This document shows, one piece after another, positions 40,352 to 47,374 of a stretch of 64,000 nucleotides of DNA (position 1 is the first letter of the stretch; every line of letters begins with the position of its first letter). Both the position numbers and the translations under genes were made by a program. The stretch covers positions 96,001-160,000 of the forward strand of contig CBDASZ010000001.1 of NCBI GenBank assembly GCA_965199755.1, in the 5' to 3' direction. The notes beneath the pieces were generated by a model. The model saw nothing but the letters and a program-made list of their open reading frames with translations. It was not told the origin of the DNA and did not search any database. This DNA is from an uncultured candidatus Porisulfidus sp. GTDB lineage: Bacteria > Pseudomonadota > Gammaproteobacteria > Poriferisulfidales > Poriferisulfidaceae.

Positions 40352-40409
40352 GTGCTGTGTTTGGCGTGCCAGTATAAAGGTTTTGCGGAAATCGCGGCTT
40401 CCCAGCGCG

Positions 40410-40752
40410 TCAAACCCCTACTTGATGCAGCGCCACTTTCACCGTGTTGGCCACCAGACAAGCCACCGTCATCGGTCCGGTGCCTCCAGGCATCGGCGTG
40501 ATGTATCCGGCCACTTCACGCACCGCGTCGAACTGCACATCCCCTTGAATCTTCCCGTCCACACGGCTTACTCCTACATCAAACACGGCGGCACCCAGTT
40601 TGACATGATCGGCGCTGATGACTCCCGGACTGCCCGTCACCGCCACCAGAATATCGTCGAACAACTGCGATTCATAGCATAGCGACACCAGCGCACAGTC
40701 CGCACGGGAGCGCTCCAGCAAGCGGTCGTAGTAACCTTGGCGTTGCCCATGC
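40410..40752 (-). pseudogene. chimeric remnant: 5-formyl-THF cyclo-ligase 3' fragment fused to a folD 3' fragment
   Basis: [33 protein letters not shown] matches 48368-48480; DILVA...[15 protein letters not shown] matches 46514-46760. Confidence 0.85.
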
Positions 40753-40818: not shown

Positions 40819-41446
40819 TCAAAATCGGCGGTATGTAACAACTCGCGTCTGCTGCGAACCCTTTATGGTTGCCAGATCAGGCACCGTGCGTGTGGCACAT
40901 ACAGCGAAAACCATGCCGTTCCCAGAACCAATCAATAGCGCCGGGGCATGATGCGGGCTATAGCCGCGGCCAGAACGTGCAGATCGATTACTGTTCTGGT
41001 TGCTATGGTTGCGAAGACTGTTTGATTGGATGGCGATGGGATCACGATGTGAGGATTCGTTTGGGGATGACTCGACATGCTTGTTGGGTGCCCCCCGCGC
41101 ACAAGTCGACTGTTGTCCTGGTTGCAAGGGTCCCGAAAACTGCTTTGTTGCTCGGGGAGCTCCAGAGGACCCCCCCCCCCCCCTATATCTGTAGCTGATA
41201 CCTTGTATGTCGTCATTCACAGGCGTTGCTTTCTCGGCATCACCTGAGCTATCGGATCGAGAGTATGCAGACCCGGTACCGTGTTGGTCGCGACTGTCGC
41301 GAACACCGTCCGCGAAGTTGGCATTGTAATCACTATCGCTTTCTGGAGCAGATGCGGCCTTGTCTCCCTGTGAGTCCCAGATCGGGGGCTGACCTTGTGG
41401 CAAGCAGTCCCCATCCGATTTGAGTGCTGTTTGAGACATAGACTGC
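40819..41446 (-). repeat. array of five diverged ~120-bp TRD cassettes (41333-41446, 41217-41339, 41042-41170, 40932-41051, 40819-40941)
   Basis: Each encodes hydrophobic strand - (V)F/W-x3-AT(R/N)-x3-(D/G)L - basic end, then a stop; adjacent cassettes are in shifted frames. Confidence 0.9.
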
Positions 41447-44400
41447 CCCCCCCCCCCTGTTTCATTTCCACGAGGGAATAGCGCAGCAGCCGTTTTGCCT
41501 GCGGACAAGATACGCCAATCCTCATACAGCCAGATTTTTACAAATGGCCGGTATAACACCTCCCTGATATTAGCTTCATCAAAAGTAAGCCTGATTTGTT
41601 TGCGCAACGTTTTCTTAAGGGCATCCGTCCACTTGATTGATTTGATATTTTGAGTGCTTGTCAACTCATCAAGAGCTTGCTGGTTGTCTGGTTTCTGCAA
41701 GATGTCCAGTGTTTTGTTGTATGTGTTAATGAGTGCTTGGGCCTTATTAGCACACTCTTCCCTCGACCAACTGTAGACATAAGTGTCTAAGTTTGTCTTG
41801 ATGCCAGCAACACTGCTAGTAGCGACCGAAGCACTGGCGTTAGTAAGTTTCGCTCTTGTGTTTTTCTGACACAATGGCATCAATGAATTAAATTCCGGAT
41901 TGCCAAGATTAATCCAGGCATGATCTGGAGTCACCGGTATTGTCTCGAATTGTTCGTGGTAAACGTCACCGAGATCCTCTAGCCACTTAAACTTTTGCTC
42001 TAGACTCCGGGAGTCTGGGACCATCGCAATACGCAATGTTGCCGGTTTTTTAATATCCTTCTTCGGATCGTAAACCAAGAAAGTTATCTGGACCCCATTT
42101 CGGGAAGCGCTACCAAAAACCTTATCCCCCTCAAGTTCCCATTCGCTACCACTCTTGTAAGCGTTCCCCCGCAAATTTGCAACATATATGTCCGTGAATT
42201 CGTCTCGCAGAACCTTTCTCATGCCTGCCAGCGAGGTGGCATCCGACAGAGAGTTTGGCGTAACCATTGCCAAAATTCGCGGCCCCGAGGTGACACCTTC
42301 CTGTCCCTGCTTCAGTATCCGGTCGGAGCCCCAGCGCAGTGCCTTGACATATAAGTTGCCACCTGCGTTCCCGCCGGGTGCCCGGCCAGTCAGCTGAGTG
42401 TGTTCTTGAACATAAGTCTGGTGCACCCGCTTGGCGATATCCTGATAGAGAATGTTCGATGCTTTCTCTGATGCGTCATCCTTGCCACTGGACCATGGCG
42501 GGTTCGTCACCAGAACCTCAATATCGGCATCACCTTGGCGCCGTACCCGCTTGTAGTTGTCCTCAAGGTCGTCTGAGTCCAGATTTAGTCGAGCACTTGA
42601 ACTTCCCGGATCAAGTAGAAGCGTGTCAACCAAACTTAAGGACTCGAACGGCTCGTAAGACAACTTGGAGGGGTCTGCCACGCCGGCTTCCTCAACTTGG
42701 CGCTGATGCTTCGTGGCTTCGATGTTCAGGTTTGCAATGTAGTAGGGGAGGAGGAGAAGTTCATTGCCGAAAAACTCCCGCCGGTATTTTCGTGAAAGGT
42801 CAGGCTCGCGAATAAGGTAATTGCCATCGTTATCCCGGAGATTAAGAAGCCGTGCGAGGAATGTCCCTGTGCCAGCGAAGGGTTCCAAAATACGAACATT
42901 CTTGTCAGAAATGCTTTTCCCAAATTCCTTCTGACAAATAGCCTCAATGGAATGTAGCACGAAATCCACAATTTCCACAGGCGTGTATGCAATGCCCATA
43001 GATTTCACTTGACCCGGTATTGCTTGCCGGAAAAAGCTTTCATAGATCTGGCGCAAGATGTCAAGTTTTTTCGCATCACGATCTTGGATTTTCTCCAAAT
43101 TTCGCTCACATCGCTGATCTTCATCAACCAGTTCATCGGCGTGTAAAGCAGTCCGCATCATTTGATACGGGCGCTCCAGTGGTTCGAGTTCAGCCCGGTA
43201 TTCCATTCCCTCAACCTCAAACGCATCCAGTACCTTCTGAATCGCAGCTGACACGGGATTGTCATCGGCAAAATGAGACTGCGAAAAGAACTCATCAAAG
43301 ACTGGTAGCGTGACGATGTGGTGCGCCAGCATGCTGACCGCCATAGTCCGATTGATATTCGGACTGACTGCCTTTTGGAGGTCCACCAAGAACCCATTGA
43401 AGTGCTCTTCAACGGCCGAATTATTATCAACGTGGGCATTGATTTTGGTTTCAATCTTGTCTGAGATTTCAGCCGCGTGCTTGCCCCACTGCAGATACAT
43501 GTGACGGTCGCCACATTCTTCAATTACGAGTGACCCGAATTTCTCTGCTATTGCTTGCCTAAACTTTTCTGGGTCCGCATAGATTGTGTCCTTGAGGTCG
43601 TCACGGACAGAGTCGTCCCTTTTGAGCGGCGGAAGTAATTTGAACGTTACTGGCAATGCACCAGCTTCAATTTCATAGTTTAAACGTTCGTCGTGTGAGC
43701 GCAATGCTCGAATGATTTCGTAGACAGGCTCGAAAGCACTTTTCCTCAGTGTTTTCTCAGCAGCGGCCTTCACATCCCCCCAATCCCAGCTCATCTGAAG
43801 CTGAAGCACTACTGGAATGATCACATAGCCTATCTTCTTATGTGGCGCTCGGCGCATGACCCGGCCCACTGCTTGCGTCACATCAATAGGAGACCGTCTT
43901 GTTTGGAGAAAAACAACCGCATCCAGAGAAGGAACGTCAACTCCCTCAGTGAGTACTCGGACATTTGTCAGAAGTTCGCATACATTTCCCGCAGTGTCTT
44001 TGTGAACTTGCCGCAACCTGTCAAGTTGCGCATCACGTTCAAACGCTGGTGTCTTTGCATCCAGATGATTTACCGACAGTTCCAGTAACTCTGTTTGACC
44101 GTCAGATGGCTCTTCGTCCGAGGCGGAGTACCACTTGATCACGTCGTTCCAAACTTTCTGAATTCTTTTGCTTTCTTTCACACGTGATGCAAATACCAGG
44201 GCAGAGCGGCAGGGTTCCCCATACTGGTCAAGGTTGATCCCACCAATTGGAAGTTCCGGATGTTGCCCCTTTGAGAGTGGGCTAGCTAGCGCATCCCAGC
44301 AACCAGCAAGTTTGATGATGGTTTCGGAGTCAATTTGTTCTCCACCTACATCTATCTCTCGGCCTGCGACTTCACGCTCAAAATCATCCTGTGTGCCACC

Positions 44401-45741
44401 AATGATTACGATCTCGTAGTCGCTCAAATAACCCTCTTTGATAGCATGAGCGAAACTCATCCGATATGCCTCATCGCCGTATGTTTCGACATCGTCCATA
44501 GAATAACTCTGTCCATCAAAATTGCGTTGCTCGAGTTTTTTTCGATGAGTGGGAGTAAACACCCTCGGAGTTGCCGTCATATAGATACGCTTCCTCGCAG
44601 GTAAATACGTGTCGGAATGCAACAAAAGAAAAGGTGATGTGTTTTCGATCTCACTGGCATGCGGCAGGCTGGAAATTTCCTTGTCTGGGTGTTTGAGCTT
44701 CTTCTTTTTCTGCTTGTTATCTTCAATTCCTGTAGTTCGGTGCGCCTCATCAGCGATGATCAGGTCAAGAGTGGCTTTCTTCCCATCGCGTTCAAGCAAA
44801 GATAATGCGAGCGCAAGAACATCTGATGACTGATAAGTACAAAATACGACTCTCATGGCCCCACCTGGCACAGGCTTGGACAACCTTTCCGCCAACTTCT
44901 TTGGCCGGGTCGTGACGGGGATAGGCATTTCAATTACTGATGTCCCATCATCCCTGCCGACCGTTTTGTCGGAACACACCGCAATGTACTCAATAGGTAC
45001 ATCGCGATCGCGATGGCGAGACCACTCTTTTATGGTCTGCCGAACGAGAGCAAGTGACGGCACCAGATATGCAATGGTCTTGCCGGATCCAAACAATTTC
45101 TCAGCAGTACGCAAAGCAACGAAGGACTTCCCGGTGCCGCACGGCAATATCAGTTTGGTGCGGTCTTTTCCTTCAAGCTCCGCTTGAATGCCCTTAATTG
45201 CCTCTCTTTGAAAGTCGTGTAGTTCATGTCGTTTTGTAACAAAGTGTGATGGCCGGACATCAAATTGTTCAAGTGCACCTACAAGACTCTCCCGATCATC
45301 AAACCAGCCAGCAATATCTTGAGTCGTAATCACTTGACATTCAGGGTTTGCATTTTCGAGTTGCGCCTGTACGTTTGAGGTGAGAGAGCGGGTTGTGACT
45401 ATCAAGCGCAGTTTGAATTTCTCGGACTCGCTGGCACCCAGAAAGGAATCAACTTCAGCTTTTCTTACTGTCGAACTGCCGTACTTCGCTTGGACCGCAA
45501 CTAAGCCTCCGCCGTAAGTTTCCGTCTGTTTGGCAACAATGTCTACGCCAATATCAATCCGGCCCCGGTAATCAACGTTGTCAGGCCAGTCCCTCCAGAG
45601 CCAAACGTTCTCGAACCTGTCACGGCCCCAGTCACCAGGGTGTTTCGTAAAGACCTGATGAATGAACTGTTCAAACGTTCGTCCTTGTTGCTGGCGCGAA
45701 CCTTGAAAGTAATTGTCGAAAATTTCTTCGATGCTTTCCAT
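40819..45741 (-). CDS. Type ISP restriction-modification enzyme (Mrr-like nuclease, SF2 helicase, N6-adenine MTase, partial TRD) with a frame-switchable C-terminus
   Basis: GVDIVA..VAVQAK nuclease; [23 protein letters not shown] helicase; EPFAGTGTF and NPPW MTase; [13 protein letters not shown] motif. Confidence 0.92.
41170..41183 (-). repeat. poly-G14 slippage tract 2 (coding strand)
   Basis: C14 on the plus strand directly before cassette 3. Confidence 0.95.
41446..41457 (-). repeat. poly-G12 slippage tract 1 (coding strand)
   Basis: C12 on the plus strand directly before cassette 1. Confidence 0.95.
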
Positions 45742-45781
45742 ATTACTAACGCTGGGTGATTGTTAAAAAGGATTCCCAAAC

Positions 45782-46459
45782 CTATGAGTCAAATAAAGAC
45801 CCCGAGTCAGTTGAGACTTCCGATAAAGGTTCAGAGGGCAGTGCCGGCGGCAATGAGCGGATGATTCGGGTCGACTCGATACCAATATAAATGAGGCGGC
45901 GCAAGTGATTGATCAATTCGACAGAGTTATCTGCCCACGCATGCCATGTATTTGGATCGTCACGTATGCCAGAGCGTTTATCAAGCTTCTCACGGAGCGA
46001 GCCAACGGCCCACTCAAGTGGCGACCTGCCAGAGATCTGGTACTCATGCGCCTCAGGAGGGATATCGACTAGTCTGCAATGGTCATTGACGTGAAGAACG
46101 GACCTGTCTTCCTGCTTTGTTTCAGGGTCCTTGCCAAACCGCATCTGCTTGACAATCCGGTACCTGAGATTCTCATCGACACTCTCGTCAACGATACACT
46201 TGACATCAGCCAGAGGAGCTTGCTCGTAGTCGGCGTGCAACTCGAAAAGCTCCGCGCCTGCTTTACAAAATTTCTGAAAGGCCTCAACCCCACCTGGGAC
46301 GAGCGGGATGGATGGCAGATTCTTCTGTAGATCATTCTTGAACTCACGCCGCCAGTCGGGCGCGTGCATAACACCGTAAATGTAATCCCAAACGTCGTCT
46401 TTGGTTATATCCTCTGATTGATAGACTTTCTGAAACTGTGCCAGCGACCAATCGGACAC
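45782..46459 (-). CDS. separately encoded C-terminal part of the Type ISP specificity domain
   Basis: ITKDDVWDYIYGVMHAPDWRREFKNDLQKNLPSIP, IPPEAHEYQISGRSPLEW, SGIRDDPN: the usual extreme C-terminus of ISP enzymes. Confidence 0.88.
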   Translation of the reverse strand: MSDWSLAQFQKVYQSEDITKDDVWDYIYGVMHAPDWRREFKNDLQKNLPSIPLVPGGVEAFQKFCKAGAELFELHADYEQAPLADVKCIVDESVDENLRYRIVKQMRFGKDPETKQEDRSVLHVNDHCRLVDIPPEAHEYQISGRSPLEWAVGSLREKLDKRSGIRDDPNTWHAWADNSVELINHLRRLIYIGIESTRIIRSLPPALPSEPLSEVSTDSGSLFDS

Positions 46460-46478
46460 ATTATCTGTTTCATATGGA

Positions 46479-46493
46479 GGGGGGGGGGGGGGG
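46479..46493 (-). repeat. poly-C15 tract (coding strand) just after an out-of-frame ATG
   Basis: G15 on the plus strand; ATG at 46500-46498. Confidence 0.95.
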
Positions 46494-46513
46494 CAAGCAT
46501 GGGAATCCCGGTG

Positions 46514-47374
46514 CTAATTGCCCGAGTTATGTAGTGCCGCCTTCACAGTATTCGCCATCAAGCAGGCAACTGTCATGGGCCCGGTGCCGCCTGGCATCGG
46601 CGTGATATAGTCAACCACTTCGTGCACTAAATCAAATTGAATATCTCCTCGTATTATGCCATCCACACGCGAGACCCCCACATCAAAGACGGCGGCACCC
46701 GGTTTAACGTGATCGGCACTAATGATCCCGGGACTTCCGGCAGCTGCTACCAGAATATCCGCCTCCCGCGTCAACTGCATCAGGTCCCGTGTGCGCGAAT
46801 GCGCCAGTGTTACCGTCGCATCCACGCCTCGCTCAGCCAACATCATTGCCATTGGCACGCCGACCAGCCGGGAGCGACCCAGTACAACTGCACGTGCGCC
46901 CTCGGTCTCAATTTTGTAATGGTTAATCAGTTCAATCACACCCGACGGCGTGCAGGGGCGCAGGCCTGGCAAGCCAACCGACAAGCGGCCTAGGTTGATT
47001 TCAGTCAGACCATCGACATCCTTGTGCGGTGGAATTGCGTGTAGAACAGGCCCTGCGTCCAAGTGCGATGGCAACGGCATCTGCACCAGAATTCCGTGCA
47101 CGGTCGAATCCTGCGCCAGAATGTGAATCGCTTCAATCAGATCTTCTTGCTTGGTGTCTGAGGGAAGCGCCAGATGACGGGACAGGATGCCTACTTCGCC
47201 GGCTTCCGCGATCTTCCGTGAGATGTACAACTGGCTGGCCGGATCGTCACCGACCAACACCGTGGCTAGTGTGATGGGAGGAAGGCCGCGAATTTGCTCA
47301 CGCAGCCGACCGCACAAAGCATGCGCGACGGCAGTGCCGTCGATAATCTTCCCGGAATGTAAGGGCTCACTCAA
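46514..47374 (-). CDS. folD: methylenetetrahydrofolate dehydrogenase/cyclohydrolase
   Basis: [42 protein letters not shown]. Confidence 0.95.
   Translation of the reverse strand: MSEPLHSGKIIDGTAVAHALCGRLREQIRGLPPITLATVLVGDDPASQLYISRKIAEAGEVGILSRHLALPSDTKQEDLIEAIHILAQDSTVHGILVQMPLPSHLDAGPVLHAIPPHKDVDGLTEINLGRLSVGLPGLRPCTPSGVIELINHYKIETEGARAVVLGRSRLVGVPMAMMLAERGVDATVTLAHSRTRDLMQLTREADILVAAAGSPGIISADHVKPGAAVFDVGVSRVDGIIRGDIQFDLVHEVVDYITPMPGGTGPMTVACLMANTVKAALHNSGN

Follow-up and report, generated by a model that had tools for sequence, protein, structure and literature searches.

A putative two-gene, repeat-switched relative of Type ISP restriction-modification enzymes in candidatus Porisulfidus

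We analyzed a stretch of 64,000 nucleotides (nt) from an uncultured candidatus Porisulfidus sp. (GenBank assembly GCA_965199755.1, contig CBDASZ010000001.1, positions 96,001 to 160,000 of the forward strand), which is called the window below and is numbered from its first letter. On its minus strand, a large gene for a Type ISP-like restriction-modification (R-M) enzyme is preceded by a small gene, and the two share one target recognition domain (TRD). The locus is probably a two-chain, phase-variable relative of the Type ISP enzymes, in which simple repeats would select the reading frame that finishes the large protein. This reading is carried by the anatomy of the locus, its recurrence in other genomes, the coding selection on its alternative C-terminal cassettes, the pass-through frames that stay open between the repeats, and the differences in tract length between assemblies.

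A recognition domain divided between two genes

The large open reading frame (ORF) occupies 40819..45741 on the minus strand (1640 amino acids) and starts with the ATG at 45741, 40 nt downstream of the stop of the small ORF (45782..46459, minus strand, 225 amino acids from the listed GTG). The features of the locus are as follows.

46494..46500, minus strand: overlapping candidate starts, ATG and, four bases later, TTG, directly 5' of the C tract
46479..46493, minus strand: C15 tract (G15 on the plus strand), candidate translational on/off switch of the small gene
45782..46478, minus strand: putative small-subunit gene with the end of the TRD core and the whole "guide"; frame open upstream through the tract
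45742..45781, minus strand: spacer of 40 nt from the small-gene stop (45782-45784) to the large-gene ATG (45741)
41458..45741, minus strand: constant part of the large gene, residues 1-1428, with Mrr nuclease, SF2 helicase-like ATPase, coupler, N6-adenine methyltransferase and N-terminal TRD
41446..41457, minus strand: first frame-selector tract, G12 on the coding strand, directly after ...LFPRGNET
41336..41443, minus strand: cassette 1a, frame +1 relative to the large gene, with two stops directly after it
41226..41339, minus strand: cassette 1b, third frame, open back to G12
41170..41183, minus strand: second frame-selector tract, G14 on the coding strand
41057..41170, minus strand: cassette 2a
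40938..41054, minus strand: cassette 2b
40819..40944, minus strand: cassette 3 and stop, in frame with the large gene as assembled, residues ~1601-1640

The Pfam matches of the large protein comprise an N-terminal Mrr-family nuclease (Mrr_cat_2, residues 41-144, E 1.2e-22), an ATPase with its coupler (ResIII, E 1.7e-15; Helicase_C, E 3e-9; ISP_coupler, E 3.4e-24) and a gamma-class methyltransferase (N6_Mtase, E 4.1e-7). The DEAH and NPPW motifs are present in the translation, the catalytic motifs are intact, and PADLOC labeled the protein as REase_MTase_IIG (E 1.8e-288). The constant part runs to ...YRPF...LFPRGNET, where the TRD is interrupted. This TRD is of the Type_ISP_C kind, and it is present in pieces: the large gene matches positions 5-101 only, a cassette accounts for about 102-150, and the small protein matches positions 170-340 of 342 (E 8.1e-44). 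It turned out that the whole genome (1.39 Mb) contains exactly these two partial Type_ISP_C matches and no other. The relatives with Type_ISP_C (10 of 40) always contain it whole, from position 1 or 2 to 319-342, in one open frame of 874-1713 amino acids, so the split and the upstream C-terminal piece are real and not a product of chance. The original prediction, in which the C-terminal part of the TRD was a separate gene on the same strand 40 nt upstream of the main gene, is thus borne out by the ORFs, by Pfam and by the whole-genome scan. Its premise that Type ISP enzymes are by definition single polypeptides agrees with the definition quoted in a passage of PMC3936762, and at this locus the domain is shared by two ORFs.

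The translation of the small ORF opens with VSDWSLAQFQ and includes ITKDDVWDYIYGVMH, then DDPN. The codons in frame 5' of its GTG read ...PPPPPPYETDN, and the C15 tract lies 19 nt before the ORF. The sequence DNVSDW, which had been ascribed to the small gene, is therefore encoded in frame, but the listed GTG start begins at VSDW and at C15 there is no in-frame start upstream. At this tract length, reading from the ATG stops after 31 codons and reading from the TTG after 9, both outside the frame of the small ORF. Frame arithmetic puts the ATG in frame at C13 or C16, and the TTG at C11, C14 or C17. A protein on record (P0005), which is 97% identical to the small protein, begins with M-PPPPP-YETDNVSDW. 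Judged from these frames, the small gene may be phase-variable and read OFF at the assembled tract length. A model for the small protein was not found in NCBIfam. Contigs of a metatranscriptome (X6) match six stretches of the large gene (43368-45723), and the small gene and the array have none; carry-over of DNA is possible for these contigs, and a part with no cover is uninformative. Scanning for promoters and terminators yielded fewer sites than shuffled sequence did and is likewise uninformative.

Tracts and cassettes behind the large gene

Only three homopolymers of at least 12 bases exist in the window (G12, G14 and C15), and all of them are located at this locus, within a gene or at a gene start. 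3' of the large gene there are five mini-cassettes of about 40 amino acids, which share one common pattern and each have a terminal stop. Two cassettes follow G12, one in each frame that the large gene does not use, and three follow G14, one per frame. Since the large-gene frame is open through both tracts to the last cassette, the ORF reaches its length of 1640 amino acids. Frame arithmetic at the first tract predicts that G12 passes to the next tract, G13 leads to cassette 1a and G11 to cassette 1b; at the second tract, G14 leads to cassette 3, G13 to cassette 2b, and G15 or G12 to cassette 2a.

About 235 alternative-frame codons in the window are free of stops. With the alternative-frame stop density of the genome (0.033-0.035 per codon), simple arithmetic gives P ~3e-4 for such an open stretch. 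The window cassettes share at most 53% amino-acid identity with each other, and the sole repeat shared among them is 45 nt long with 73% identity.

The same architecture in other genomes

We ran a length-restricted search with the small protein. Among 299 candidates, 110 are stand-alone homologues of about 170-366 amino acids, which have their own ATG starts and variable N-terminal extensions, and several of them are on megabase contigs. In a library of representatives, the closest clusters are also stand-alone proteins (249-311 amino acids, 50-55% identity), while the nearest fused full-length enzymes share 44-49% identity with the small protein. The in-line order of these fused enzymes is FP..., a cassette-like segment, a variable linker and DNITDW..., and P0119 and P0135 (44-46% identity) are candidates for the nearest unsplit ancestor, one that would have a single in-line cassette. 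On the coding strand of the window, the same 9-mer (coding ..ETx) stands directly before G12 (41458-41466) and directly after C15 (46464-46472). An unsplit relative shows ...FPRYSYETD... at the corresponding junction, and the shared 9-mer may be a relic of the original in-line gene.

With a single protein as query (P0002), no related loci were found in genome contigs or metagenome contigs. An alignment query returned 133 genomic relatives in genome contigs, of which 80 loci were kept and mapped for the large gene, the small gene, a cassette hidden Markov model (HMM) and repeats, resulting in 74 large-gene units with arrays. The hosts are mostly sponge-symbiont Acidimicrobiia, and there are also Chloroflexota, Acidobacteriota and one gammaproteobacterium. 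The 110 stand-alone homologues and 74 units argue against a leftover seen only here, which would have spoken against the split enzyme. The gene orders of the units are as follows.

Large gene, array, small gene (colinear): 38 units
Small gene, large gene, array (small-first, as in the window): 21 units
Divergent, head to head: 10 units
Colinear and small-first in tandem: 1 unit
Unclassified: 4 units

The original prediction held that the split is what makes the switch possible, and co-occurrence of split order with cassette arrays had been proposed as a check. The split is universal in the family and the small gene accompanies arrays in three gene orders, so the permuted order is only one of three layouts (21 small-first vs 38 colinear units). 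Because the colinear loci are split as well, permutation is not required. In the tree of small proteins, the gene orders are clustered but have changed repeatedly; under a midpoint root, the small-first order needs five or more changes to fit the starred branches, and the window groups with two small-first loci.

Several loci show additional features of the small gene. In one small-first locus (L060, 1421-1424), the stop of the small gene and the ATG of the large gene share bases (ATGA), an overlap suggestive of translational coupling. Tandem arrays of two or three complete units in one genome exist at L026, L073 and L077. Of 81 small genes, 13 have a tract at most 180 nt upstream, which closely follows the ATG in small-first loci and otherwise falls in the divergent promoter region. 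For instance, the small genes of seven small-first loci (L028, L037, L059, L060, L065, L068 and L091) contain 5' tracts, and in four divergent loci (L025, L033, L061 and L069) a G10-G15 tract lies about 105-124 nt upstream of the small gene, between both genes, where it looks like a promoter-spacer switch common to the two. The frequent presence of an own tract at small-first and divergent small genes suggests independent on/off control. Besides, extra G/C tracts of 11-12 bases are located inside the large genes of L020, L023, L029 and L036 and coincide with frame breaks, so they are candidates for a further on/off level.

Regularity of the arrays and coding selection on cassettes

We took homopolymers and dinucleotide repeats as switches and counted the cassettes between them. 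Exactly two cassettes behind every inner switch and three behind the last one, as in the window, were observed in 44 of 74 arrays, and in 58 of 74 the last group has three cassettes and the inner groups at most two. Among the groups with at least two cassettes, nearly all (125 of 131) have every cassette in a different frame. The switches consist of 79 G homopolymers, 46 C homopolymers and 25 dinucleotide repeats. A dinucleotide repeat serves as first switch in L023, L025, L027, L039, L040, L042, L050, L063, L071, L084 and L085, where (AG)n is translated as RERERE and (AC)n as THTHTH; the repeat types differ and the functional position is the same.

Generally, a cassette frame can be followed back without a stop as far as the repeat before it or the large gene (344 of 357). 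For cassettes 60-110 codons away, 69 of 71 are open, vs 35 of 213 antisense control frames. Between switches, 73 of 74 segments contain a fully open sense frame, with exactly one such frame in 68, compared with 42 of 74 in antisense. According to the HMM, 64 of 73 units have a large gene whose own frame finishes in a cassette, and the rank of this cassette ranges from the 1st to the 7th. What's more, most cassette matches (296 of 381) end 0-3 residues before a stop.

Cassette substitutions at codon positions 1, 2 and 3 number 666, 401 and 1269 over 87 independent pairs, and this excess at the third position indicates that the cassettes are under coding selection in their own frame. Almost all cassettes (356 of 373) are nearer to one in another genome than to any in their own array, with a median best identity of 82% to the other genome vs 44% within the array, from which the cassettes are judged to be old paralogous types. 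Single-linkage typing chained the cassettes into one large cluster and was set aside.

Mapping onto solved enzymes and a model of the complex

Residues 14-204 of the small protein align to residues 1399-1572 of LlaBIII. In the parts of PMC4872093 that describe the TRD, the core of LlaBIII comprises 1205-1244 and 1291-1448 and the guide 1448-1578; the guide is described there as the most conserved subdomain, with no base reading or part in target recognition. The same description places Loop VI of LlaGI at 1365-1374, where H1368, G1372 and Q1373 read target position +3, and a beta-hairpin at 1347-1358 just before it (PMC4872093). The cassette-equivalent segment of a whole relative aligns to chain index 1178-1218 of LlaGI, that is, residues ~1342-1382, and adding 164 to the chain index makes H, G and Q of MHVIGGQ residues 1368, 1372 and 1373. 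By this alignment, the cassette would carry the base-reading Loop VI and the small protein the non-reading guide. At the position equivalent to H1368, the five window cassettes have A, H, H, C and G, and the rest of the loop also differs. In the family, ORFs with a short linker cover Type_ISP_C to positions 143-150; as the small chain resumes at 170, only the variable linker is left unaccounted for.

Prediction of the two-chain structure had been proposed as a check on the original prediction, and its outcome was favourable. We modeled the tail of the large protein (residues 1281-1640, with linker and cassette 3; 30 family rows) together with the small protein (19 family rows), after one row containing X (L042) was excluded from the alignment A3. 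The model reached an ipSAE of 0.72 (0.72, 0.28 and 0.79 in the single runs) vs 0.12 for the best of 3 controls; the mark applied to this score is reached by 116 of 157 solved complexes and by 2 of 215 mismatched pairs. The contacts agree to at least 36% across runs, the pLDDT of the partner is at least 71, and the interface takes in the YRPF strand and cassette 3 (residues 320-357 of the submitted chain). The model thus supports an assembly of the two chains, with the reservation that solved single-chain homologues exist (4XQK and 5FFJ) and the pass may reflect likeness to them.

Tract lengths differ between assemblies

Contigs of two public runs, X1 and X3, from two studies cross both frame-selector tracts. 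An X1 contig matches 41087-41597 and an X3 contig matches 41087-41590 with 0 mismatches over about 500 nt, and the tract lengths differ between these identical flanks: the first and second tracts are (12,14) in the window, (11,13) in X1 and (12,13) in X3. By frame arithmetic, the large gene would end in cassette 3 in the window, in cassette 1b in X1 and in cassette 2b in X3. An assembly artefact, such as a two-colour poly-G error or a chimeric join, was considered as a source of the locus and rejected, because the same architecture exists in dozens of independent, often complete genomes and the independent contigs of the two studies cross both tracts with 0 mismatches.

Proposed mechanism and alternative explanations

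In the mechanism that we propose, the large gene would encode nuclease, motor, coupler, methyltransferase and the first part of the TRD, and then enter G12. Slippage at G12 and G14 would shift the reading frame. At each tract, one frame would lead at once to the first cassette of about 40 amino acids and a second frame to the second cassette, and the third would have no stop before the next tract, so that translation continues to it; after the last tract, each of the three frames would end in a cassette, so that two tracts could give five alternative C-termini. Each cassette would add the beta-hairpin and Loop VI of the TRD core and then stop. Because of these obligatory stops, the part of the TRD that does not vary would be made from a separate gene, and this chain, with the core end and the guide that steers the DNA, would bind non-covalently to the large chain. 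The C15 tract beside the small-gene starts would act as a master on/off switch. A two-chain enzyme, in which the cassettes stop and the remainder is supplied in trans, had already been suggested, and the family, the stop placement, the TRD mapping and the complex model all argue for it. We infer that the chains bind, that long linkers are tolerated, that the recognised sequence depends on the cassette, and that switching in cells is reversible. Somewhat less firmly, we also favour a broader formulation: a recombinase-free "reading-frame multiplexer", in which successive tracts would build a ternary decision tree, with n tracts addressing 2n+1 Loop VI cassettes, and give heritable and reversible multi-state specificity. 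Division of the recognition domain into a variable catalytic chain and an invariant guide chain in trans, with its own on/off tract, would make this possible, and the module would have spread across several sponge-dwelling phyla.

Several points weigh against the proposed mechanism. In the assembled C15 state, there is no ATG, GTG or TTG in frame 5' of the listed GTG, and an internal GTG start would lose the near-invariant D-N of the small protein. In an X1 contig, the tract beside the small gene is 6 letters shorter than C15, which is the same frame, so the consensus state may be OFF. The in-frame product of the window has to bridge the TRD strands with a hydrophilic linker of about 170 residues, and other family loci would require as many as 330; the tolerance of such long linkers is an assumption. 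Seven cassettes are more than the four bases that are possible at one target position. In G+C-rich loci, antisense frames are often open too (174 of 390 at 12-60 codons). One of the three runs of the complex model reached only 0.28, and the pLDDT of chain 1 is 38-53. Relatedness among the 74 units, most of which come from one habitat, makes their counts non-independent. Besides, homopolymer lengths in assemblies can be wrong, and since X1 and X3 are represented by assembled contigs, heterogeneity within the samples is invisible in them.

The same split anatomy could also operate with the frame chosen mainly at the RNA or ribosome level, so that each cell makes a mixture of isoforms. At 12-15 G or C, the tracts have a length at which polymerases can slip, and a small gene that is OFF at the DNA level in two assemblies would be tolerable in a conserved system if slippage restores the frame. 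We regard this explanation as unlikely, since the tract lengths differ in the DNA of assemblies with identical flanks, the in-frame cassette varies between genomes, and many family loci have dinucleotide repeats, which are classic elements of DNA slippage; the two modes are not exclusive. A different view of the small protein is that it acts as a regulator or inhibitor, with the large protein and a cassette forming the complete enzyme. Nothing specific favours this role, to which we give very little weight: the small chain holds the last ~50 residues of the core and the guide, so the core is incomplete without it, and in the modeled interface the small chain interdigitates with both the cassette and the YRPF strand.

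Decay of the locus would make the small ORF the leftover of a deleted neighbouring ISP gene, the large gene dead and the cassettes debris. Tandem duplication followed by deletion is a plausible origin of the small-first order, tandem arrays do occur (L026, L073 and L077), and an in-frame start is missing from the small gene as assembled here. Even so, decay is strongly disfavoured, for the architecture is present in 74 units with conserved cassette types, substitutions are in excess at the third position, the stops are placed precisely, the pass-through frames are open and the large gene retains its catalytic motifs. Small genes also begin at start codons of their own, with a stop that runs into the large-gene ATG in L060. 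It is similarly improbable that recombination or gene conversion moves cassettes into a single expression site and that the tracts are incidental. Such exchange is a known route of specificity switching with multiple cassettes in Type I systems, but between folD and tRNA-Glu there is no recombinase-sized ORF other than the ISP genes, the window cassettes have at most 53% identity and only one 45-nt repeat at 73% in common, and different frames directly behind the repeats in 125 of 131 groups are an arrangement that recombination does not need. Two further candidates were tried and rejected. Inversion between the complementary C15 and G12/G14 would flip a 5-kb segment and join no cassette to the small gene. 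Circular excision would join cassette 3 to the small gene, where stops intervene, and colinear loci keep the small gene separate too.

Genomic context and other tracts

The ISP unit of the window, about 6 kb long, has been inserted between folD and tRNA-Glu(ctc), and it is bordered by two copies of folD sequence.

46514..47374, minus strand: full folD, upstream border of the island (Pfam)
40410..40655, minus strand: diverged duplicate of the 3' end of folD, far end of the island (Pfam THF_DHG_CYH_C, positions 81-158)

The duplicate corresponds to the last ~240 nt of folD (cf. 46514-46760) with about 80% identity. In all five same-genus loci examined, tRNA-Glu(ctc) follows folD after about 0.05-1.2 kb, and there is one folD per genome. 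A joint from 40353 to 40746, which skips the folD remnant, exists in both X1 and X3, with a short side of only 30 and 25 letters. No integrase was found within the island, and no recombinase-sized ORF beyond the ISP genes between folD and tRNA-Glu. The island thus contains no further long ORF that could serve a recombinase shufflon (neighbouring ORFs were not Pfam-scanned for recombinases), and long DNA repeats linking the cassettes are absent, with weak short ones only.

In the whole genome of 1.39 Mb, there are 10 homopolymers of at least 9 bases, all of which are G/C runs of 11-16 bases and none A/T. Seven of them lie beyond the window, including C1:850197-850209 and C2:9879-9889, 131557-131572, 165003-165015, 218866-218879 and 266339-266350. 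These sites involve a second helicase-type R-M gene, a Dam-like methyltransferase (in the FGGGG motif), a GT9 heptosyltransferase, the region upstream of an 826-amino-acid surface-type protein, and two further sites. R-M, methyltransferase, glycosyltransferase and surface genes are the usual set of contingency loci. This genome appears to run on contingency loci.

Comparison with known systems

LlaGI and LlaBIII (PDB 5FFJ and 4XQK) are among the closest known systems. They have the Mrr nuclease, SF2 ATPase, coupler, gamma-class N6-adenine methyltransferase and TRD in the same order, and the TRD pieces of the locus map to their core, Loop VI and guide. Unlike the locus, they are single polypeptides with one fixed TRD, whereas the TRD here is cut after the Loop VI segment and five alternative Loop VI cassettes stand behind tracts. 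If the proposed mechanism is true, this would be the first split enzyme in a class whose definition demands a single polypeptide, and the cut after Loop VI would show where a Type ISP recognition domain can be divided and reprogrammed, which bears on the engineering of restriction specificity. The literature available as full text (without subscription journals or supplements) yielded no account of TRD cassettes selected by frame, nor of a Type ISP enzyme that is split or phase-variable.

Phase variation of R-M systems by simple repeats is well established, as in the Type III mod phasevarions and in Type I and IIG systems with homopolymers in Neisseria, Helicobacter and Campylobacter. As in those genes, a tract in or beside the coding region sets the frame, and several such loci are present in this genome. 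To our knowledge, the known repeat-switched cases are ON/OFF, or in one case produce a truncated variant (NgoAV hsdS), whereas here 3-7 recognition cassettes would be reached through nested frames with a pass-through frame between the tracts. The inverting hsdS systems of Streptococcus pneumoniae and Mycoplasma pulmonis use a site-specific recombinase and inverted repeats to exchange whole TRDs. They are alike in that alternative specificity segments are stored beside one enzyme gene and give multi-state specificity; in contrast, the module here is a single loop of about 40 residues chosen by frame, with no recombinase and no long repeats. If true, the locus would represent a third route beside repeat ON/OFF and recombinase switching, in which repeats alone select up to seven recognition modules, nested in all three frames with one frame as open conduit to the next switch. 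Many complete sponge-symbiont genomes are in different frame states, and the methylation motif is predicted to change at one or two positions with the state. Such a design may help to explain how symbionts that live in a densely mixed community rich in viruses can diversify their defence and methylation with no recombination machinery.

Type I HsdS and Type IIB enzymes (such as BsaXI and BcgI) also need a second polypeptide that joins the catalytic chain for recognition, as is proposed for this locus. Their separate subunit, however, carries the base-reading TRD, whereas here, judged from the alignments, the separate chain would be invariant and non-reading and the variable loop would be on the catalytic chain; the small chain maps to the core end and the guide, so it does not bear the base-reading loops that define a separate S subunit. 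In conclusion, the sequence comparisons and the complex model point to a repeat-switched, split Type ISP-like enzyme, which would be a variant of phase-variable R-M systems with an unusual mechanism.

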